From an uncultured Candidatus Saccharibacteria bacterium (lineage in GTDB: Bacteria; Patescibacteriota; Minisyncoccia; Phycocordibacterales; XYD1-FULL-46-19), in the NCBI GenBank assembly GCA_964655995.1, contig CAZZPK010000003.1, positions 22,960 through 86,959 on the forward strand: a DNA stretch of 64,000 bases. Direction: 5' to 3'. Numbering within the stretch: position 1 is the first letter of the stretch; every line of letters starts with the position of its first letter. The notes below the pieces were generated by a model. The model was given only the letters and a program-made list of their open reading frames with translations. It was not told the origin of the DNA and did not search any database. The translations under genes and the position numbers were made by a program. This document shows positions 5,830 to 37,107 of this stretch, in pieces.

Positions 5830-6087
5830 CTAATTTTTAAAATATTTAGCTAACTGCTTCTTAATAAATCGATGCCCGGCGCCACTTTTTAAAAATTTTT
5901 CTCTTCCTAAGGCATCACCTTTATTTAAATACATTTCAGCATAAATGAGTTTTAGCTCGTTTTTAGTACTAGTGTAAGGGCTATGTTTTCTCTTGTGGTC
6001 TTTTAATCTTTGCTTTAAATCATGAGTAAAGCCAATATACCAGGTTTTATCAACTTGATCTTCAAGTATATACACAACAAAAGACAT
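5830..6087 (-). CDS. GIY-YIG nuclease family protein (UPF0213-like), in an AT-rich segment
   Basis: VVYILEDQVDKTWYIGFTHDLKQRLKDH is a GIY-YIG motif; about 33% GC against about 55% in the flanks. Confidence 0.65.
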   Translation of the reverse strand: MSFVVYILEDQVDKTWYIGFTHDLKQRLKDHKRKHSPYTSTKNELKLIYAEMYLNKGDALGREKFLKSGAGHRFIKKQLAKYFKN

Positions 6088-6366: not shown

Positions 6367-7323
6367 ATGCCAATGGAGCCCATTTCCCGCGGCGACTCGA
6401 TCTTTTGGATCGAGGTCGACAAAATCAAAGCCAACCCCTTCCAGCCTCGGCATGAGTTTAACGAGGATCGTTTGCGCGATTTGGCCGACTCGATCCGCCA
6501 ATACGGCGTACTCCAGCCTTTGGTAGTGACGCGCAAGGAGATTGAGCGCGAGGACGGCGGCCTCTCGGTGGAGTACGAGCTCATTGCCGGCGAGCGGCGT
6601 CTCCGCGCCTCTAAAATTGCCGGCATTAGCCAAGTGCCCGCTATTATCAAAAGCGGCGAGCAGACCGATAAGATGAAGTTGGAGCTCGCGATTATCGAGA
6701 ACCTCCAGCGCGAGGATCTTAATCCGCTCGATCGGGCGCAAGCGTTCCATCAACTGGTCAACGAGTTTGGCCTCAAACACACCGAGGTGGCCAAGCGCGT
6801 GGGCCGCAGCCGCGAGTACGTCTCCAACACCTTGCGCCTGCTTGCTTTGCCGCAGGTGGCGCTCGACGCTTTAATGTCCGGCCAAATTACCGAGGGCCAT
6901 ACTCGGCCGATTTTAATGTTGGTGGATCGGCCGGAGGAGCAGTTGGCCTTATTCCACGAGATCGTGACCAAGCGCTTAAATGTCCGCGAGTCCGAGCAAA
7001 TTGCCCGTCGCATCGCCTACGACAAAGTGCGCAAAAAAGACACTTTTATCCCGCCGGAGATCATTGAGTTGGAGGAGAAATTGACGGAAAAATTCGGTAC
7101 CCGGGTCAAGGTCGACCGCAAAGACAAGGGCGGGCGAGTGACCATCGACTTTTTTTCCGACGCTGATTTGCGGCACATTTTAGACTTGATGGCTCAAAGC
7201 GCCGAGGCCGCTCCGACTGCCGAGGCCGCCGAGGGTGATCAACAGGAGTCCGACCAGCCGCCGGCGGCGGAGCCCGCGGCGGGCGACGACGAGCTTTACT
7301 CCGTCAGGCATTTTTCCCTTTAA
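6367..7323 (+). CDS. parB: ParB-like partition/nucleoid-associated protein with an acidic C-terminal tail
   Basis: ParB box GERRLRASKIAG and an HTH; no parA/soj is adjacent. Confidence 0.8.
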   Translation: MPMEPISRGDSIFWIEVDKIKANPFQPRHEFNEDRLRDLADSIRQYGVLQPLVVTRKEIEREDGGLSVEYELIAGERRLRASKIAGISQVPAIIKSGEQTDKMKLELAIIENLQREDLNPLDRAQAFHQLVNEFGLKHTEVAKRVGRSREYVSNTLRLLALPQVALDALMSGQITEGHTRPILMLVDRPEEQLALFHEIVTKRLNVRESEQIARRIAYDKVRKKDTFIPPEIIELEEKLTEKFGTRVKVDRKDKGGRVTIDFFSDADLRHILDLMAQSAEAAPTAEAAEGDQQESDQPPAAEPAAGDDELYSVRHFSL

Positions 7324-8765
7324 TTTAATTTTTGGAGATAAGATTTGATATGTTTGCGGGCAAGGCCGGTTTTGACGTGCTCGAGCCACTTTACCGACGG
7401 CCGATTAGACTTTTTAGTCTCAATTAAGATCACGTCATCGTTTTTAAGTACTGTGGTGAGAGCCACAAATTTGCCGTTAACGGTAGCGCCGCTGGCGTGA
7501 TCGCCGATCTCGGAGTGGATCGCATAGGCAAAATCAAGCGCCGTGGCGCCGACCGGCAGCTCAATCACGTCGCCCTTGGGGGTAAAGACAAAAATCCGAT
7601 CCTCAAAAAAGTCGGTTTTAAGCGCGGTCAAATAATCCTCCGAGTGTTGGGCCTCTTTTTGCCATTCCAGCAATTTGTTAAGCCAGGCGAGCTTGGGGTC
7701 GTTTAGGCGCGGCTTTTTGGCTTTGCCGTTTTCGTCATAAATTAAGTGGGAGGCCAGGCCATACTCGGCCTCCTCATGCATATCCTCGGTCCTGATCTGG
7801 ATCTCGGCCATACTGCCGTCGCCGGCAAAGATGGTGGTATGGATGCTTTGATAACCGTTGGGTTTGGGATTGGCAATATAGTCTTTGAGGCGGCCGGAGA
7901 CCGGTTTCCATAAAGTGTGGATGAGGCCTAATACTTGGTAGCAGTCGGCCACCGTCGGCACAATCACTCGCAGGGCCGAGATGTCGTAAATCTGATCGAT
8001 ATTCATTTGGTGGCGCTTTAATTTTTCGTACAGACTATAAAGATACTTGATCCGATATTCGATCTTGATGTCCTTGATCCCTTGGGCTACGGCCTCGCGC
8101 GAGAGAGTGCGATACAATTTCTCTAGCCGCTTAATGCTCTCGCGGCCTTTGGTTTTGCGGAGAGCGGTGACCGCGGCGTACTCTTTAGGGTAAGCGTAGG
8201 GGAAGGCGCCGTCCTCCAAAGCGCCTTTGATCTTCCACATCCCGAGGCGATTGGCGAGCGGGGCGTATATCTCAAGCGTTTCCAGCGCGATCCGCTTTTG
8301 CTTGTCTTTGGGGACATGTTGGAGAGTGCGGATATTGTGCAGGCGATCAGCCAAGCGGATCATGATTACCCGCAGATCTTTGGCCATGGCGACAAATAAT
8401 TTACGCAAGCTCTCAACGTGGCGTTCGACGCCCTGGTATTTTAATTGGCCGAGTTTGGTTACCCCGTCCACCAAAAAGGCGACAGTCTCGCCAAATTCTC
8501 TAACCAAATCGTCGCGCGTTACCGTCGTGTCCTCTAAAACATCATGGAGCAGTCCGGCGGCGATAGTCTCATTGTCGGTCCGGAGGCCGGCTAAGATTTT
8601 GGCCACTTCGAGCGGGTGGGCGATATACTCCTCGCCGGAGAGGCGTTTTTGCCCGTCATGAGCCTTGAGAGCAAAGTGGTAGGCGCGCTCGATTAGTCCA
8701 CTGTCGGTATTTAGAGGCAATAAGTCGATTAACTCTTTAATTTGTGGGGATGGTGATTGGGGCAT
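7320..8765 (-). CDS. rel: bifunctional (p)ppGpp synthetase/hydrolase, short Rel/SpoT form (HD hydrolase, synthetase and TGS domains)
   Basis: HD motif HDVLEDT, synthetase motifs (RLKDYIANPKPNGYQSIHT) and a TGS-like C-terminus. Confidence 0.8.
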   Translation of the reverse strand: MPQSPSPQIKELIDLLPLNTDSGLIERAYHFALKAHDGQKRLSGEEYIAHPLEVAKILAGLRTDNETIAAGLLHDVLEDTTVTRDDLVREFGETVAFLVDGVTKLGQLKYQGVERHVESLRKLFVAMAKDLRVIMIRLADRLHNIRTLQHVPKDKQKRIALETLEIYAPLANRLGMWKIKGALEDGAFPYAYPKEYAAVTALRKTKGRESIKRLEKLYRTLSREAVAQGIKDIKIEYRIKYLYSLYEKLKRHQMNIDQIYDISALRVIVPTVADCYQVLGLIHTLWKPVSGRLKDYIANPKPNGYQSIHTTIFAGDGSMAEIQIRTEDMHEEAEYGLASHLIYDENGKAKKPRLNDPKLAWLNKLLEWQKEAQHSEDYLTALKTDFFEDRIFVFTPKGDVIELPVGATALDFAYAIHSEIGDHASGATVNGKFVALTTVLKNDDVILIETKKSNRPSVKWLEHVKTGLARKHIKSYLQKLN

Positions 8766-19391: not shown

Positions 19392-19922
19392 TTAAAACCG
19401 CCAAGTTTTTTCTGTCTGCCAAATTTTATCGGCCAATCGGAACAAAGTTAAATTATCAAAATTAAGCTCAAAATGTGGCGGCGGTAAGGTTTGTAAATAG
19501 TTCCAAATAGCCGCTGATTGTTCCGAGGTCAAATGTCGGGCAATCGAGGCGTGTAATCTAAAATTATCCGGCAGAGGCTTTTTCTTTTCGCCAAAGTCTT
19601 TAATTTGGTCTATTATTTTTAAAATTTTATTATTCAATCCGTCGTCTTTTCTAACGTTTAAATAAATCGTTTTGCTGTCTAGTCCATAGCGATCAAAACC
19701 ATCAATATCTATAGGTAAAGAGGTTTGGCTGGAAGCAATATCACCCAGAGTTTTTTTAAAAGGATTTATGTTGTCGCTTTCAAACGGTGGCTTAAAAGTA
19801 AAGTGAGGCGGTATCCGTAAAGATAAATTAGCAATTCCAAACCGTGCCGCTAGGTCGGTAGTGATCTGTTGGTAATACTTTGCCGCCTCACCCTCAATTA
19901 AATACCCCACAAAATAGATCAT
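19392..19922 (-). CDS. thpR: 2H phosphoesterase (LigT/ThpR, RNA 2',3'-cyclic phosphodiesterase)
   Basis: Two H-x-T/S-x motifs (HFTFK and HASIARH); the start at 19922 (MIYFVGY) avoids overlap with the tRNA. Confidence 0.65.
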   Translation of the reverse strand: MIYFVGYLIEGEAAKYYQQITTDLAARFGIANLSLRIPPHFTFKPPFESDNINPFKKTLGDIASSQTSLPIDIDGFDRYGLDSKTIYLNVRKDDGLNNKILKIIDQIKDFGEKKKPLPDNFRLHASIARHLTSEQSAAIWNYLQTLPPPHFELNFDNLTLFRLADKIWQTEKTWRF

Positions 19923-19926
19923 AAGT

Positions 19927-20000
19927 TGGCTGCCGGTCAGGGACTCGAACCCCAATACCATCCTCCAGAGGGATGTGTCCTACCATTAGACGAACCGGCA
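19927..20000 (-). tRNA. tRNA-Gln (anticodon CUG)
   Basis: The reverse complement reads TGCCGGTTCGTCTAATGGTAGGAC...cTCTGga...GGTTCGAGTCCCTGACCGGCAGCCA, with a U1:A72 pair. Confidence 0.8.
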
Positions 20001-20141: not shown

Positions 20142-21032
20142 ATGAAAAACGCCATTATTTTTATTGTCATTATTTTAATTATTGCCGGCGGGGCTTACTG
20201 GCTCTGGACTAATCAGGCGGCCGCTCCGGCGCCGGTAGAGCCGGGGGCAGGGGCTACCACCACGCCACCGGTAGTAGAGGACAAGACCAAGACGGTCATC
20301 GGTCAGTCGGTGGAGGGGAGGGACATTGTGGCTTACCACTTTGGCGAGGGGGCGGATCGCATCCTCTTTGTGGGCGGTATACACGGTGGCTACTCGTGGA
20401 ATACACCTCTCCTCGCTTACGAGCTGATGGATTATTTAAAAGCTAATCCTAGCGCCGTACCCAGCAATATTACGGTAACGGTGATCCCGGTGCTTAACCC
20501 CGATGGTCTCACTAAAGTGGTGGGTACCACGACCAAGTTTGCCGCCGCCGATGTGGCTAAAAGCAAAGAGACGCAGGTGGCTGGCCGCTTTAACGCTAAC
20601 GAGGTGGACTTAAATCGCAACTTTGACTGCGAGTGGCAACCGGAGGCCACTTGGCAGAGTAAAAAGGTGAGTGGCGGTAGCGCCGCCTTCTCCGAGCCGG
20701 AGAGCCGCGCCGTTAAAAATTATATCGAGGCTAATAAGCCCAAGGCCGCCGTGGTGTGGTACAGCGCGGCTGGCGGCGTCTTTGCCTCCAATTGTCGCAA
20801 TGGCGATGGGGTAATGCCCGAGACTTTGGCCCTCACTAACACCTACGCCAAAGCGGCCGGCTACAAGGCCTATGAGAGCTTTGACTTTTACGAGACGACG
20901 GGTGACATGGTCAATTGGCTCGCTAAAAATAATATCCCGGCGATCAGCGTCCTCCTCACTAACTACAGCGCTACCGAGTGGAGTAAAAATAAAGCGGGCA
21001 TTGAGTCGATCCTAAAATACTACGCTAAATAA
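20142..21032 (+). CDS. M14 zinc-carboxypeptidase-like protein, probably catalytically inactive
   Basis: Signal/TM N-terminus and the DLNRNF motif. The HxxE glutamate is replaced (HGGYSW), the second His ligand is Tyr (VVWYSAAG) and the catalytic Glu is Leu (ISVLLTN). Confidence 0.6.
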   Translation: MKNAIIFIVIILIIAGGAYWLWTNQAAAPAPVEPGAGATTTPPVVEDKTKTVIGQSVEGRDIVAYHFGEGADRILFVGGIHGGYSWNTPLLAYELMDYLKANPSAVPSNITVTVIPVLNPDGLTKVVGTTTKFAAADVAKSKETQVAGRFNANEVDLNRNFDCEWQPEATWQSKKVSGGSAAFSEPESRAVKNYIEANKPKAAVVWYSAAGGVFASNCRNGDGVMPETLALTNTYAKAAGYKAYESFDFYETTGDMVNWLAKNNIPAISVLLTNYSATEWSKNKAGIESILKYYAK

Positions 21033-21907
21033 TGTGGTCGTTACGTCAGCTCCTGATCGGTGCGCTCGCGGTGCTCATTTTGGCCGGCGGGGGCATTGGC
21101 GCGCTTAAGTGGTACCGGTCGCGCCAGGCGGCCGTTTTGCCGCCGGCTCCGGCCGTCGCCACCTCCACCAAGCAAGTTATCGGCTACTCGGTGCAAGGGC
21201 GAGCGATTGAGAGTTACACCTTTGGCACCGGCGCGACCAATCTTTTGTTTGTTGGCGGTGTGCACGGCGGCTATGAGTGGAATAGTGTTTTACTTGCCTA
21301 CGCGGTAATTGATTATTTAAACGCGAGCCCCGGCGTGGTGCCGGCTAATGTGAGCGTAACGGTGGTGCCTAATTTAAATCCCGACGGCGTCTACAAGGTG
21401 GTGGGTAAAGAGGGGCGCTTTGCGGCCGGCGACGTACCGGCCGACAAGGTCGTCCGCGCCGCCGGCCGCTTTAACTCCCGCGCCGTCGACCTAAACCGCA
21501 ACTTTGACTGCAAGTGGCAGGCCACCAGCACCTGGCAGGGGCGCGAGGTGAGCGCGGGCACGGCCGCCTTCTCCGAGCCCGAGGCGGCGGCCCTGCGCAA
21601 TTTGGTTTTAAAAATCAAGCCTAAAGCGGCTGTCTTTTGGCACTCGCAGGCCGGCGCCGTCTACGCCTCGGAGTGCGAGCAGGGGATACTGCCCGCCACT
21701 TTAACCTTAATGAGCACTTACGCCCAAGCCGCCGACTACCCGGCCGTTAAAACCTTTGACGCTTACGCTATCACCGGCGACGCCGAGGGCTGGCTGGCCT
21801 CCCTCGGCATCCCGGCCATCACGGTGGAATTTAAAACCCACGACTCTCCCGACCTCCCCCAAAACCTCGCTGGCGTTAAGGCTGTCCTTAACCTCTATCG
21901 CCCTTAA
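21032..21907 (+). CDS. M14 zinc carboxypeptidase-like protein with an intact catalytic set
   Basis: HGGYEW, FWHSQAG, DLNRNF and ITVEFKTH (catalytic-Glu position) line up with carboxypeptidase A landmarks. Confidence 0.65.
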   Translation: MWSLRQLLIGALAVLILAGGGIGALKWYRSRQAAVLPPAPAVATSTKQVIGYSVQGRAIESYTFGTGATNLLFVGGVHGGYEWNSVLLAYAVIDYLNASPGVVPANVSVTVVPNLNPDGVYKVVGKEGRFAAGDVPADKVVRAAGRFNSRAVDLNRNFDCKWQATSTWQGREVSAGTAAFSEPEAAALRNLVLKIKPKAAVFWHSQAGAVYASECEQGILPATLTLMSTYAQAADYPAVKTFDAYAITGDAEGWLASLGIPAITVEFKTHDSPDLPQNLAGVKAVLNLYRP

Positions 21908-21999
21908 GAAAAATTTTGTTTTATGGTTAGATCAGGATACTTGTTTTTTAACTTAAAAAGTCTATTATCTGAGTAGTTGTATAAAAAATTAGTATTAAT

Positions 22000-22575
22000 A
22001 TGATAAAACAAGAGTCAAGTGAGAGATGGTGGTATCGGTTAATTAAGGTCATTTTTATAACAATGATCCTTTTTTCCTTACTAATTCCAGCTATAATTTT
22101 TCTTGAAAGTAAACCAGTTCTTGATAGATATGAAAGTCGCTTTAGTTTAAAGTGTGCTGACGGTAGGTTCCGAGGTGATTTTGATGGTTCTGATTTGGCG
22201 TACTATGATCTTAAATCTTTTGATAATTCTTATTACAATAAAGATAAATTTACCAATCTAGATAGAATGGCAAAGATTGCTTGCCATTATCAAGAAACTG
22301 GCGATGAATTAAAACCAATTGTAGAGTCAGAAAGTACTTTTGTCCCAACGGAAAAAAATTATGAGATTTTCTTGAGAAAACCATCTTATAGTAATTCGTG
22401 GGTAGAAACAATTAGCTACACAGTCTTAGCGTTTTTAGGGGTAATTCTATTTTTTAGCTTATTAAGAGCAATTTTCCTTTACATTATTTTTGGTGAAAAT
22501 TTTGGCAAAAATCTAGTATTTATATTTTGTTTATTTAAAAGTAAAAGAAAAATCATTGTTGAAAAACAAAAATAG
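22000..22575 (+). CDS. hypothetical two-TM membrane protein (AT-rich island)
   Basis: 191 aa with hydrophobic helices near both ends; about 30% GC. Confidence 0.45.
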   Translation: MIKQESSERWWYRLIKVIFITMILFSLLIPAIIFLESKPVLDRYESRFSLKCADGRFRGDFDGSDLAYYDLKSFDNSYYNKDKFTNLDRMAKIACHYQETGDELKPIVESESTFVPTEKNYEIFLRKPSYSNSWVETISYTVLAFLGVILFFSLLRAIFLYIIFGENFGKNLVFIFCLFKSKRKIIVEKQK

Positions 22576-22608
22576 GTATAAAAATAATAAATTAACTTAA
22601 AAGCTAAT

Positions 22609-22788
22609 ATGAATAAAGAATTTAGAGAAATAATAACAGGGTTAATAATTTTCGGTATAGTAATTCTATTAGCGTGGTTCTTGTTTGGTAGAGATATAGA
22701 ACCAGATTTATCTTCTAATTATAGTGGTTCATTAGAAGATCAATATTATGAGGGTGAAGGGTCTGGTCATCCGCTTTGGAATAATTAG
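22609..22788 (+). CDS. small single-TM protein (absent from the supplied ORF track)
   Basis: MNKEFREIITGLIIFGIVILLAWFLFG..., 59 aa, inside the AT-rich island. Confidence 0.3.
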   Translation: MNKEFREIITGLIIFGIVILLAWFLFGRDIEPDLSSNYSGSLEDQYYEGEGSGHPLWNN

Positions 22789-22836
22789 AGACCTCCGTCA
22801 AGGCGAGGCCTTGGCGCTGGTACGGTATGAACTTCT

Positions 22837-23592
22837 ATGATGAATATTGGAAGAAATGATCTGTGCCTATGTGGAAGTAATAAAAAATTCAAAAAGTGCT
22901 ATGGTGCAGTAAATAGTACTTGTTCCATTTTCTTGAAAGAACAGTGTCAAAAATTCATAAACGAGCACAACGAAAGAGAAAAATTTGTTTTTAGGTTTTT
23001 TAATGAGGTTCTTGAAGATACAAATGTAATTCTTCTCAAGAATAAAGAAGGAGATGACAAACTTCCTTTGCGGGTACAAATGATCATTGCCTTCAGTTTG
23101 ATAGATGTTCTTGGCAGTTATTGGTATGAGTATTTAGGTAAAACAGGAAAGACGAGCGAAAGAGCTCAAAAATGGTACGAACAGTTCTGTTTGAACGATA
23201 AAAATCCTAATCTGCTAACCCCTCAAGACTGGTCAAGAATTTCTAGTGATAGGTTATATCAATTTAGGAATTCACTCGTTCATTTCTTTGGTCTTTCAGA
23301 AAAAAGCGATGGGATTTACTTTGCATTAGCACCTAATAACCTTCCTGACGATAAACACAAGGATTGGCAAAAGCAGTTTAGTAAGAAAGGTGATGAGTCT
23401 TTTATCATCAAACCAGCTAACTTTTACGACCTAATCAGAGAAGGAGCGGTTTTGATGCTTAATGAGTGGTCGGAAGTTATCAAAAATGCTCAAACCAGCC
23501 CAGAGCATGAAAAAAGTCATATTGAGGGGATCGAGAGGATTTTTAACAAGATAAACAAAGAGGGTGCAGTCAAAGTAATGCAGGAAAAATGA
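22837..23592 (+). CDS. SEC-C motif protein with an uncharacterised C-terminal domain
   Basis: The N-terminal GRNDLCLCGSNKKFKKCYG matches the SecA C-terminal metal-binding (SEC-C) motif; the remaining roughly 220 aa are unrecognised; low GC. Confidence 0.55.
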   Translation: MMNIGRNDLCLCGSNKKFKKCYGAVNSTCSIFLKEQCQKFINEHNEREKFVFRFFNEVLEDTNVILLKNKEGDDKLPLRVQMIIAFSLIDVLGSYWYEYLGKTGKTSERAQKWYEQFCLNDKNPNLLTPQDWSRISSDRLYQFRNSLVHFFGLSEKSDGIYFALAPNNLPDDKHKDWQKQFSKKGDESFIIKPANFYDLIREGAVLMLNEWSEVIKNAQTSPEHEKSHIEGIERIFNKINKEGAVKVMQEK

Positions 23593-23709
23593 GAACCTTT
23601 GGTGGGGTGAGACCTTGAGTCTTTGAGGGACTATTTGGGAGGAGGGGAGGGTGGGGAGTTTTGGTATAATTGGGAGATGAGGTGACTGGAGGGGTGGTAA
23701 GATAGGGAT

Positions 23710-25376: not shown

Positions 25377-26537
25377 TTAGTGAGCGGCAAAGACCATTTG
25401 GGAGATGCCGAGAGCGGTGCCGTCAAAGGGTTGCTGGAGGGTAAAGTTTAGCTCCGGATTGGCCGCTTGTTGGGCGGCGAGGAGGGTGGGCGCTTGGGTG
25501 ATGCCGCCGTCTAAGATAATTTTAGCGGGCGGCGGCGTTAATTTGTTTAACACTTGGCCAGCGGCCGCTGTCATCTCGCTTACCACCTCGTCGAGCGGCT
25601 CGTGCCCCGCCAAAAGTGCGTCAATACGCGCGGCGTATGTGCCCACTTTAGCCTCGAGGGCGTAAATGGGCCCGGCCGGCGCCGCCGCCAGCGTGGTAAA
25701 AAAGCCGTCTTGCAGTTTAAACTCCGCGCCCAACTCGCTCATGATAAAAGTGCCGGTGCCGTAAGTGATTTTGGCGGCGGCGCCAGCCTCACGTGCGGCG
25801 TAAAAGCTCGCTTGTTGATCGCCACACACGGCCAAGAGCGGTAAAGGCCAGCCCAGCACTTTAGCGTCGAGGGTGCCAAAGAGGGCAAGCGAGTGTTTAA
25901 CCTCGGGCAGTAAAGGCGCCGGTATCCGCCACATTTTTAAAAGCTCCTCATCCCAAGTTTTGGTTTTAATGTTAAAGAGGAGAGTACGCGAGGCATTGGT
26001 GTAGTCGGTGAGATGCGGCCGGCCCTCAAGTAAATTCCACAGCAACCAGGTGTCGATAGTGCCGGCGAGTAATTGGCTGGTGTCGGCTGGAGCGGCATGA
26101 GCCAGGATCCAAGCGATTTTAGAGGCCGAAAAGTAGCTATCGAGCGTTAACCCCGTTTTTTCTCTAACTAATTGGCTGTAGGTGGGCGCGAGTGTGGCAC
26201 ACTCATCTTTGGTGCGGCTGTCCTCCCACACAATGGCAGGGTAAATCGGCTGGCCACTAATTTTACTCCACACCACTACCGTCTCGCGCTGATTAGTGAG
26301 GCCGAGGCCGGCACAATTTTCCGTCGTGAGGCCGGCCGCCGCCACCACCTCGCGCAGAGCCTCCGTGGCGGCGGTTAAGATGTCGTTTGCGTCTTGCTCC
26401 ACCTGCACGCCAGCGGCCGAAATTTTTTTAGCGATAGTGCGCGCGCTCTTGGCCACGATCTCGCCGCTTGCTTTAAACACCAGCGCTTTAATGCCGGTGG
26501 TGCCGGCGTCGAGCACCAAGGCTAATTTGTTACTCAT
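25377..26537 (-). CDS. FGGY-family carbohydrate kinase (short, glycerol kinase-like)
   Basis: The LALVLDAGTTGIKALVF N-terminus is the FGGY actin-fold ATPase signature; start taken at 26537. Confidence 0.65.
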   Translation of the reverse strand: MSNKLALVLDAGTTGIKALVFKASGEIVAKSARTIAKKISAAGVQVEQDANDILTAATEALREVVAAAGLTTENCAGLGLTNQRETVVVWSKISGQPIYPAIVWEDSRTKDECATLAPTYSQLVREKTGLTLDSYFSASKIAWILAHAAPADTSQLLAGTIDTWLLWNLLEGRPHLTDYTNASRTLLFNIKTKTWDEELLKMWRIPAPLLPEVKHSLALFGTLDAKVLGWPLPLLAVCGDQQASFYAAREAGAAAKITYGTGTFIMSELGAEFKLQDGFFTTLAAAPAGPIYALEAKVGTYAARIDALLAGHEPLDEVVSEMTAAAGQVLNKLTPPPAKIILDGGITQAPTLLAAQQAANPELNFTLQQPFDGTALGISQMVFAAH

Positions 26538-27408
26538 GGTAAAGCGTCTCGATAAGCGAGCGCGGGTCGGCGCCGGCGGTAATAATTTGTTGCAGGGCGG
26601 TAAAGAGGGGGAGGCTCGCCGTTTGGTCGTCCAAGCGCGCGTGCAAATATTTAATCGCGTGCACACCCTCGGAGACGGGTGGAGTCTCGCCGCGGGCGAG
26701 AGCCAAGCCCACTTGGCGATTTAGCGAGCCGGGGCTTAAACCGGTGGCCAGCAAGTCGCCCAAGCCCGGCAAGTCGTAGGCGAGGAGGGTGGGCGCTTGC
26801 TCGAGCTCTAAAATCTTAACCATTTCTTTAAGAGCGGCGGTAGTAAAAACGGCTTGAGTATTGGTGCCGGCCTCTAAACCGGCCAGGAGCCCAAAGCCGA
26901 TAGCGTAGATATTTTTTAAAGCCGAGAGGAGGGCGAGCGCTTTAATCTCGCTGGTGGTGGTGAGTTTAATTTTGGTTTGATCTAAAACAGCGCTAATTAA
27001 ATCGGCCGAGGCGCCGGGGCCGGCCGCCACTAGGGCGGCGGTGTGGCGGCCGGCCAAAATCTCCTCGGCAATCATCGGCCCGGCCAAGAGGGCCCAGGGA
27101 CGGCCGGGCAAAACCTCGGCTAAAATCTCGGGCACTAATTTATTACTCCCTTGCTCTAAGCCTTTGGTTAAAGCCACCACTATGGCCTCCGGTTTAAGGT
27201 GAGGCAGGTACTCGCTTAAAGCGGCCCGGATAAACTGGGAGGGCACACCCACAAACACTACTAGGGCTCCCGCCAGCTCGGCCGGCTCCGCCAGGGTAGA
27301 GCGGCTAGCCTCTTTATCTAAAATGCCGATTAAACTGCCGGGGACTAACAAGGCTTTAATTGCCTGCCCAATCTCACCTCCGCCGATTATGGCTACTTGA
27401 GGACTCAT
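26530..27408 (-). CDS. gpsA: NAD(P)H-dependent glycerol-3-phosphate dehydrogenase
   Basis: VAIIGGGEIGQAIA Rossmann motif and the GpsA layout. Confidence 0.8.
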   Translation of the reverse strand: MSPQVAIIGGGEIGQAIKALLVPGSLIGILDKEASRSTLAEPAELAGALVVFVGVPSQFIRAALSEYLPHLKPEAIVVALTKGLEQGSNKLVPEILAEVLPGRPWALLAGPMIAEEILAGRHTAALVAAGPGASADLISAVLDQTKIKLTTTSEIKALALLSALKNIYAIGFGLLAGLEAGTNTQAVFTTAALKEMVKILELEQAPTLLAYDLPGLGDLLATGLSPGSLNRQVGLALARGETPPVSEGVHAIKYLHARLDDQTASLPLFTALQQIITAGADPRSLIETLYHE

Positions 27409-36501: not shown

Positions 36502-37107
36502 CTAAGAAAGATTAAATATTTTCTTTAACCAGCTATCATTTTCTAAATAAGATACTTCCATATACAACACCTCTTTGCCAATATGATAGTTAGCCTTTAA
36601 TAGGGCTACTACTTCTTGGCAATCGTATGGATAAACCCAAACACTATTTTGGAGCCTTATTAAGCCTAAGTGCTGAAACCAAGCTCGCAATTTGTTTCTA
36701 GTGGATCGTTTCCATTCCTTAATATCAAAAATAATAATTCGATATTTACCATCCCAGCGTTTTGGTTTATTTATGGTTAATTTTTCTAACTCATATTCTT
36801 TTAACTTAATTTTGCCACTTTTGGTCAATCGGACAACTTTCTGTCTTTTACTATTATTTTCTATTTTAACTAAACCCTGTTTCTCTAGGCGGCCAACCAC
36901 TTGATTAATGTAATTCCTTTTCTTTGATTCTTGTTTTGGTAGAAAACGGAGTAATTTTAGGCAATTTGGTGCCACTACTGCTAAAGCAATAATCCCAGTT
37001 AGGCCAATAACACTAAGAATTATTTGTTGATAGTCTGAATTTGGTGATCTCATACCTATTCCTAAGTATAAACGGTCGTCAAAAGTTAGGAAAGAGGTGT
37101 TTGACAA
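36502..37107 (-). CDS. membrane-anchored PaaX-like wHTH regulator with a Cas2/VapD-fold middle domain, lacking the PaaX C-terminal domain
   Basis: N-terminal TM, wHTH (QVVGRLEKQGLVK...VVRLTKSGKIKL), then RWDGKYRIIIFDIKEWKRSTRNKLRAWFQHLGLIRLQNSVWVYP. This resembles the E. coli PaaX segment PPWDGKWLLLLSEGLD...LIWQGFG and the Cas2 consensus (YDI...R.Q.SVFE). AT-rich. Confidence 0.5.
   Translation of the reverse strand: MSNTSFLTFDDRLYLGIGMRSPNSDYQQIILSVIGLTGIIALAVVAPNCLKLLRFLPKQESKKRNYINQVVGRLEKQGLVKIENNSKRQKVVRLTKSGKIKLKEYELEKLTINKPKRWDGKYRIIIFDIKEWKRSTRNKLRAWFQHLGLIRLQNSVWVYPYDCQEVVALLKANYHIGKEVLYMEVSYLENDSWLKKIFNLS
37058..37090 (+). repeat. direct repeat copy 2 carrying the ACGGTCGTC motif
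   Basis: See copy 1; together they bracket the PaaX-like gene. Confidence 0.5.

Follow-up and report, generated by a model that had tools for sequence, protein, structure and literature searches.

What occupies the AT-rich segment that separates a pair of M14 carboxypeptidase genes from sppA in an uncultured Candidatus Saccharibacteria bacterium, and did its genes arrive as a single unit? The window, by which we mean the whole stretch of 64,000 nucleotides analyzed here (assembly GCA_964655995.1, contig CAZZPK010000003.1), contains at this place three open reading frames (ORFs) of 191, 59, and 251 amino acids (aa), whose products have two, one, and zero hydrophobic segments, respectively, as had been described in an original prediction made from the sequence alone. 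That prediction treated the three genes as one horizontally acquired module of the defense or abortive-infection (Abi) type, centered on the 251-aa protein and its N-terminal SEC-C metal-binding motif. Our analysis instead gives moderate preference to an explanation in which two independent, horizontally acquired cassettes of low GC content lie side by side in a genome belonging to Paceibacteria (Patescibacteria/CPR): cassette A (22000-22788), encoding a two-transmembrane (2TM) protein and a small single-TM peptide, and cassette B (22837-23592), a lone gene that would encode a mobile, solitary ribonuclease (RNase) from a family of the HEPN superfamily.

The compositional break that drew attention to the segment is pronounced. 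Between positions 21908 and 23592 the GC content is 0.323 (32.3%, versus 51.1% elsewhere in the 64 kb), while equal-length, non-overlapping windows across the remaining sequence have a mean of 0.511 ± 0.030 and a minimum of 0.407 (z = -6.3), which bears out the drop reported at about 21.95 to 23.6 kb. The shift is also present at the codon level, with GC at third codon positions (GC3) of 0.23, 0.20, and 0.35 in the genes for the 191-aa, 59-aa, and 251-aa products, compared with 0.54-0.74 in the flanking genes encoding M14a, M14b, SppA, PD-(D/E)XK, FGGY, and GpsA proteins. The left border coincides with the stop codon of M14b (21907) and the right border lies just past the stop codon of the 251-aa gene (23592). 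Pfam assigned the flanks to two Peptidase_M14 genes upstream and a Peptidase_S49 (SppA) gene downstream; the M14 genes are indeed GC rich, although at 54% and 61% rather than at the uniform value of about 58% given before. Low GC and GC3 together support the earlier view that the segment is foreign and accessory.

Within this island the composition is heterogeneous, reaching 58% GC at 22789-22836, and the distribution of homologues divides it at the same place. Relatives of the 191-aa or 59-aa product occur at 0/8 loci of the 251-aa family, and a relative of the 251-aa protein occurs at 0/3 loci of the 191-aa family. Because the two families do not co-occur in the loci of either, and because a 48-bp spacer of host-like GC lies between them, we regard the island as two units, and the part of the original prediction that joined the three genes in one module did not hold. 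Comparison with other sequences indicates that all three ORFs are real genes, since homologues exist for the 251-aa and 191-aa proteins and a weakly similar positional counterpart exists for the 59-aa peptide.

The protein encoded by cassette B has no hydrophobic segment by hydropathy, and its 23 homologues, at 37-56% identity, all carry Patescibacteria source labels. The family is rare: among 1.84 billion representative proteins, a profile search retrieved 230 clusters at an E value of ≤1e-3, from which 125, diverged to ~17-25% identity, were taken into a broad alignment. Only N123, R144, and H149 are conserved in ≥90% of this alignment. The R144-x4-H149 motif is invariant in 24 close members, and a hydrophobic-R-x4-H motif is found in 121/125 members, in which the residue following the Arg is N (77 members), C (24), S (15), or H (3); in the window protein it is N145. 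HEPN domains are defined by an Rx4-6H motif in which the Arg is followed by a polar residue, usually N, D, or H (PMC3710099), and the R-x4-H motif of this family with its following Asn matches that definition.

We modeled the 251-aa protein with AlphaFold2 (AF2) and obtained a confident structure, with a predicted local distance difference test score (pLDDT) of 87.6 and a predicted template modeling score (pTM) of 0.79. In this model a long helix spans residues 30-66, a helix at 78-100 bears D90, and a helical insert occupies residues 106-127; R144 lies in the last turn of the helix at 137-147, and H149 falls just past that helix at the start of a loop. The motif is followed by a beta-hairpin and helix insert at 160-191 and then by two more helices. 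A hairpin at the position of the 160-191 insert is also known in Csx1. D90 is nearly invariant in close members and is the majority residue in the 125-member alignment, and it is not part of an Ex3[KR] sequence; many HEPN families, though not all, are described as having an acidic residue conserved in helix-2, often within Ex3[KR] (PMC3710099). The position of R144 and H149 at a helix end and the helical insert ahead of the motif helix fit the placement described for HEPN domains, to which the helix bearing D90 may also correspond, and the HEPN toxin of HEPN-MNT pairs (e.g., PDB 7ae2 and 8xdj) is among the best structural matches of the model.

On the strength of motif conservation and the predicted fold, we consider it likely that the C-terminal domain is a member of the HEPN superfamily. 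The ~220 aa that follow the SEC-C motif had been called unrecognized, which remains accurate in that no library (Pfam, NCBIfam, PHROGs, or PADLOC) matches them, but both the motif and the AF2 model mark them as HEPN-like. Since this fold is typical of Abi and toxin RNases, the defense or Abi role suspected earlier gains indirect support. Together with its relatives, the 251-aa protein most likely represents a HEPN-like family that has not been described before and whose SEC-C knuckle is a variant one, the HEPN fold class itself being well known. We note that four distant members (P0095, P0114, P0118, and P0129) carry Trp at conserved Gly positions (CPCWSWKK versus CPCGSGKK and KEWAV versus KEGAV), which suggests an origin in organisms with genetic code 25 (UGA = Gly; Gracilibacteria/Absconditabacteria) and a translation in which UGA was read as Trp.

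The SEC-C motif at the N terminus had been called textbook, and here the outcome is divided. Pfam SEC-C (PF02810) scores 29.1 bits on residues 6-21 (E = 8.8e-7) and so exceeds its gathering score of 20.4, but the alignment covers model positions 1-16 of 19, and the fourth ligand is a Tyr. The metal-ligand pattern of the SEC-C motif in SecA, YecA, and YchJ is C-x-C-x8-C-[HC]. In the window protein, C10, C12, and C21 correspond to the first three ligands, and position 22 is Tyr rather than His or Cys. The CxCx8C core is present in 36/125 family members, in which the residue after the third Cys is Y in 31, F in 2, C in 2, W in 1, and H in 0, and an extra Cys lies 7-11 residues past the third Cys in 34 of these 36 (C29 in the window protein). 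This conservation pattern probably reflects a family-specific SEC-C variant in which the role of fourth ligand has moved to the downstream Cys. Members with the knuckle are scattered over about half of a neighbor-joining tree, requiring at least 23 changes (versus 31.6 for shuffled labels), and where the gene directly adjoins the one upstream of it, the lack of a knuckle is a true absence. Being limited to 36/125 members and scattered on the tree, the knuckle is for this family an optional and labile addition.

Several other proteins that pair a SEC-C or Rx4H-like motif with additional sequence were considered as relatives and rejected. A 349-aa protein with YRNKFVH in the locus L002 shares only the motif with the 251-aa family (hhalign probability, 0.7%), and a Bacillus plasmid protein that joins an N-terminal SEC-C to a YkgJ domain is likewise unrelated beyond the motif. 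The same is true of a 248-aa protein on the Vibrio anguillarum plasmid p292 (L177:3001-3747), which has a canonical N-terminal SEC-C and an unannotated C-terminal domain and is encoded between S24 peptidase and DUF4365 genes. An Enterococcus faecalis 454-aa protein (L178:705-2069; plasmid LR962733.1) showed no homology to the family beyond SEC-C; it combines an N-terminal, zinc-ribbon-like CxxC...CxxC with a canonical C-terminal SEC-C (Pfam E = 5.9e-9) and an Rx4H-like LRNAIQHF motif ~90 residues before its end, and a HEPN-like motif and SEC-C could have come together in it independently. In the NCBIfam scan, the N-terminal SEC-C of the 251-aa protein also matched the start of a methionine aminopeptidase model.

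The genomic contexts of the family were compared across 8 independent loci (the window, L002, L004, L007, L008, L010, L171, and L173). An all-versus-all comparison of ORFs within 3 kb at these 8 loci revealed no recurrent neighbor, the only matches being spurious antisense ORFs. The gene occupies a different site in each genome examined, has a GC content of 0.285-0.359 in hosts of 0.355-0.507, and in several loci lies within 2-30 nucleotides (nt) of its neighbors. In L008, L171, and L173 the low-GC tract consists of the gene alone (623-653 bp). The clearest trace of movement is found in L171 (Wolfebacteria GCA_001793895.1, MGIT01000001.1), which carries a homologue without SEC-C in a cassette of ~645 bp that is bounded on both sides by a 54-nt direct repeat (51/54 identical; score, 93 versus a null maximum of 26). 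The upstream copy (6930-6983) is the 3' end of an adh_short gene including its stop codon, and the downstream copy (7629-7682) follows the stop codon of the inserted gene; this duplication is the insertion footprint of a single-gene cassette.

The window copy of the 251-aa gene has no comparable flanking repeat, and no integrase, adjacent tRNA, or significant flanking direct repeat was seen in the window, the tRNA nearest to the island being a tRNA-Gln at 19927-20000. A 17-nt inverted repeat (I4) was dismissed as an insertion mark, since it falls within the coding sequences of M14b and sppA and is probably fortuitous. At one of the other loci the gene lies in a larger island: L002:2500-9000 (Buchananbacteria, Ga0172379_10000111) is a 6.5-kb low-GC island of ~30% against 50% in its flanks, which holds a helix-turn-helix (HTH) gene, a LexA_DNA_bind-Peptidase_S24-N6_N4_Mtase fusion, four unannotatable genes, and a SEC-C/HEPN-like homologue. 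Searches for a tandem-repeat antitoxin RNA near the 251-aa gene returned no TRF array and nothing credible from Rfam. Overall, we lean toward the 251-aa gene being a mobile solo gene of the toxin or abortive-infection type rather than a housekeeping gene.

In the mechanism that we hypothesize, RNA would be cleaved without a metal by the Rx4H residues R144 and H149, with assistance from N145 and probably also from N123, and the RNase would most likely be active as a dimer, like other HEPN RNases. With reasonable though far from full confidence, then, the 251-aa protein may be regarded as a metal-independent dimeric endoribonuclease (H149, R144) engaged in genetic conflict as a toxin, an Abi protein, or a selfish gene. 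The part proposed for the knuckle is far more tentative. Both SecB and the ribosome are binding partners of SecA-type metal-binding domains, those of SecA and YecA included (PMC6620043; bioRxiv 10.1101/613315). By analogy, and given also the SEC-C match at the start of the aminopeptidase model, the knuckle might dock the RNase on the ribosome; we think it rather unlikely, if worth stating, that it tethers the enzyme to ribosomes with rRNA, tRNA, or translating mRNA as the substrate.

A number of observations weigh against this interpretation of cassette B. All of the Pfam matches to HEPN families (PF18730, PF18739, PF18735, PF18736, and PF12358) are subthreshold, with E values of 0.006-0.5; profile searches of the PDB with the family gave no HEPN match; and Foldseek searches of the model against the PDB and BFVD returned nothing significant. 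In part of the family the motif Arg is followed by C (24) or S (15) instead of the typical N, D, or H, and the SEC-C variant is without its canonical fourth ligand, metal and ribosome binding by it being predicted only. As to context, the neighbors in L002, L004, and L007 go unassigned in both Pfam and PADLOC, several homologues lie between housekeeping genes and outside any recognizable defense island, and no relatives were found on viral contigs or on plasmids, the plasmid tblastn matches being to the SEC-C motif only. Finally, the loci showed neither an antitoxin nor an immunity gene nor any RNA repeat of the antitoxin kind, which would leave a toxic RNase without visible restraint.

These points leave some room for alternatives, and the most substantial of them concerns the fold, with the C-terminal domain being a helical bundle of some other or wholly new function (a metal-dependent enzyme resembling DinB, for instance, or a domain for binding) and its likeness to HEPN a mere coincidence of a four-helix bundle and a short motif. 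We rate this as improbable, though not negligibly so. The subthreshold results just listed speak in its favor, but the weak Pfam matches converge on five HEPN families rather than being scattered: apart from SEC-C, five Pfam families were matched by two or more members, and four of the five belong to HEPN (Cthe_2314 by three, Apea by three, RiboL-PSP by two, and DUF3644 by two), a further HEPN family, pEK499_p136, is matched by a single member, and the alignments include the RNxxxH motif. The motif agrees with the HEPN definition in sequence and spacing, in the Asn that follows, and in lying at the end of a helix. A DinB/YfiT-like bundle was rejected because enzymes of the DinB type use a His triad and there is one conserved His here; the sole PDB profile match below an E value of 0.01, to residues 189-271 of NQO1, was rejected as well, having no Arg and a different fold.

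The remaining alternatives question the role or origin of the genes, and we hold each of them to be very improbable. A single three-gene defense or Abi module, in which the membrane proteins act as sensor or effector with a zinc-binding cytosolic partner, would account for adjacent, same-strand genes that are all low in GC and for the toxin-type fold of the 251-aa protein. Membrane effectors are, moreover, common in defense systems. This arrangement is nonetheless largely refuted because of the lack of co-occurrence described above; the spacer between the units has 58% GC, and at another locus an HTH-Fic pair follows the 2TM protein and peptide instead. PADLOC-DB v2 gave no match for the 191-aa and 59-aa products and matched the 251-aa protein only via residues 3-43, to the SEC-C tails of the E2 and PDC-S12 models, so that the earlier statement that no known defense system corresponds to the island is upheld. 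Scarcely better placed is a housekeeping factor associated with secretion or with the ribosome, of the SecA metal-binding-domain, YecA/AscA, or YchJ type, that works with SppA and the membrane proteins and uses its helical domain as a chaperone or scaffold instead of a nuclease. The SEC-C motif, the ability of the SecA and YecA SEC-C domains to bind ribosomes and SecB, and the adjoining sppA and membrane-protein genes are compatible with such a factor, but YchJ- and YecA-type models match the motif alone and far under their cutoffs (for NCBIfam YchJ-type models, residues 2-24 only, at 15-24 bits against cutoffs of 120-158), and the protein is thus not YchJ/UPF0225, the family named in the original prediction as an outcome that would refute it. 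Two thirds of the family are without SEC-C; the family is rare, patchy, and compositionally foreign and never adjoins sppA elsewhere; and near-invariance of N, R, and H only is the pattern of a catalytic site rather than of a scaffold. Least probable of all is that the low GC is native, in a heterogeneous genome that keeps certain genes AT rich because of their function, for instance to hold the expression of a toxic product low. Several other short tracts of the window fall below 40% GC, and the HEPN-like gene is low in GC in every host examined, which may point to a gene-intrinsic constraint; against this stand the codon-level GC3 shift with borders at gene ends, the absence of the family from most relatives and its different site in each genome, and the insertion duplication in L171. 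Overall, two adjacent cassettes, one of them a solitary HEPN-type gene, remain the explanation that we prefer.

Among described proteins, the kind closest to the 251-aa protein comprises HEPN RNases of solo or restriction-modification (R-M)-associated families, namely the Apea-like (PF18739), Cthe_2314-like (PF18730), RiboL-PSP-HEPN (PF18735), EC042_2821/DUF3644, and pEK499_p136-like families, together with the single-gene Abi proteins AbiV, AbiJ, and AbiU2. The new family is set apart from these in that no model reaches its threshold and in being labeled almost only as Patescibacteria, and the window protein differs further by a beta-hairpin and a helix inserted behind the motif and by one additional helix at the C terminus. 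We found no description of an N-terminal SEC-C knuckle on a HEPN family, and the one paper in the searched library that names both terms shows no such fusion. The toxins of HEPN-MNT type II/VII toxin-antitoxin pairs (PDB 7ae2 and 8xdj) have the same active-site motif, but the 251-aa protein is ~100 aa longer, with inserts, and its loci contain neither a minimal nucleotidyltransferase (MNT) nor any other conserved partner. Similarly, type III toxin-antitoxin systems (AbiV/AbiF) combine a HEPN toxin with a repeat RNA antitoxin, whereas the 251-aa loci are without RNA repeats. The SecA C-terminal metal-binding domain, YecA (AscA; UPF0149), and YchJ (UPF0225) share the CxCx8C core with a G-S-x-K-K-[FY]-K-K signature; in the 251-aa family, by contrast, the motif is N-terminal, the third Cys is followed by Tyr or Phe in 33/36, and the remainder of the protein is unrelated.

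The closest functional analogue may be Rugutis, a 359-aa protein encoded on a Lactococcus plasmid (pUCCL633_059) and validated as a single-gene abortive-infection protein that is triggered by the phage large terminase subunit and causes cell death. Like the 251-aa protein, it is the product of a single gene on mobile DNA and has an N-terminal SEC-C of ~20 residues ahead of an effector-sized C-terminal domain without a recognized family, the likeness being one of architecture as described. Rugutis provides a precedent for single-gene Abi proteins with an N-terminal SEC-C.

Features of the segment between M14b and sppA are listed in Table 1.

Table 1. Coordinates of the two cassettes, their features, and the adjoining intergenic sequence in the window
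Feature	Position	Strand	Basis or location
AT-rich intergenic sequence, GC 0.21	21908..21999	.	Island left edge, straight after M14b stop
Cassette A gene 1, 191-aa membrane protein	22000..22575	+	ORF list, homologues, hydropathy
Cassette A gene 2, 59-aa peptide	22609..22788	+	ORF list, hydropathy, L165 counterpart
Spacer, 48 bp, host-like GC 0.58, small hairpin AAGGC-GAG-GCCTT	22789..22836	.	Between the two cassettes
Cassette B, 251-aa cytosolic protein, variant SEC-C knuckle and HEPN-like helical domain	22837..23592	+	Homologues, Pfam, AF2
Variant SEC-C knuckle, residues C10-C29, C-x-C-x8-C-Y-x6-C	22864..22923	+	Pfam, alignment
Predicted catalytic Rx4H motif, R144-N-S-L-V-H149	23266..23283	+	Alignment conservation, AF2 model
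G-rich intergenic sequence, 117 bp, host-like GC 0.52, GC skew +0.55	23593..23709	.	Between island and sppA

Cassette A is less readily interpreted. Hydropathy places the hydrophobic segments of the 191-aa protein at residues ~10-41 and 133-168, separated by a loop of ~90-100 aa with two invariant Cys residues (C52 and C95) and followed by a basic C-terminal tail (+6). The protein has 4 homologues, at 45-65% identity, and no family match in Pfam, NCBIfam, PHROGs, or PADLOC, and its AF2 model is poor (pLDDT, 66; pTM, 0.39). The 59-aa peptide consists of a single hydrophobic segment (residues 3-31) and an acidic tail (-5). Its positional counterpart is a 54-aa single-TM peptide in L165, also encoded after a 2TM homologue, to which it is 31% identical over 45 aa (E = 8e-4). 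In that locus (L165:81-1570, a contig of Logan SRR14366756), the 2TM homologue and the peptide are followed by a pair of HTH_17 and Fic genes, which is toxin-antitoxin-like, so that there too the cassette A pair adjoins conflict-type genes. Another homologue of the 191-aa protein, in L166, has neighbors other than those in L165.

The intergenic sequence offers some indication of what preceded the cassettes. The 117 bp between the island and sppA are probably native, and together with the 48-bp spacer they frame the 251-aa gene; these two host-like pieces may be the halves of an original M14b-sppA intergenic region that was split by insertion. In a synteny sample taken around M14b (80 loci from genomes) and around SppA (73 loci from metagenomes), in which the closest relatives were 54-70% identical for M14b and 59% or less for SppA, M14 and sppA were never adjacent and sppA never lay within 10 kb of the conserved M14 pair. 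The tandem M14 carboxypeptidase paralogues themselves (20142-21907 in the window) form an adjacent pair wherever the contig reaches far enough upstream, as in most of the 80 Paceibacteria genome loci (L012-L091), and the genes downstream of them are not conserved.

Short low-GC tracts of about one gene each also occur elsewhere in the window. They include a gene at 5830-6087 (-) for an 85-aa protein that adjoins tRNA-Leu and may be GIY-YIG-like by appearance, a 2'-5' RNA ligase/LigT-like gene at 19392-19961 (-; Pfam 2_5_RNA_ligase2) that adjoins tRNA-Gln, and a gene at 36502-37107 (-) for a 201-aa protein with a GC content of 0.33. Single-gene foreign tracts may be common in the source genome. 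Downstream of the island, the FGGY-kinase ORF at 25377-26666 (-), listed with a GTG start, overlaps the 3' end of the GpsA-like ORF at 26530-27408 (-) by 137 nt, and its true start is probably further downstream than this GTG.

Patescibacteria have tiny genomes with few recognizable defense or toxin systems. An unannotated mobile family of HEPN-type RNases, if that is what cassette B represents, adds to the repertoire with which these organisms engage in genetic conflict, although the advance is an incremental one, HEPN folds and the biology around them being familiar. For annotation, a new HEPN family model could be built from the Y-x-[FL]-R-N-S-L-V-H-F motif. That a SEC-C knuckle is fused to some members suggests, by analogy, a link between a ribosome-binding zinc knuckle and an RNase effector that could illuminate the unexplained lactococcal Abi protein Rugutis. 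A broader and considerably more doubtful proposal is that SEC-C is a portable ribosome-docking tag for conflict effectors and that the gene spreads in Patescibacteria by an undescribed type of insertion that duplicates the 3' end of its target; if true, the docking-tag logic would explain both the N-terminal SEC-C of Rugutis and the SEC-C tails on PADLOC candidate defense proteins. The exact single-gene low-GC tracts, together with the one duplication footprint, hint at the movement of single genes between Patescibacteria genomes.

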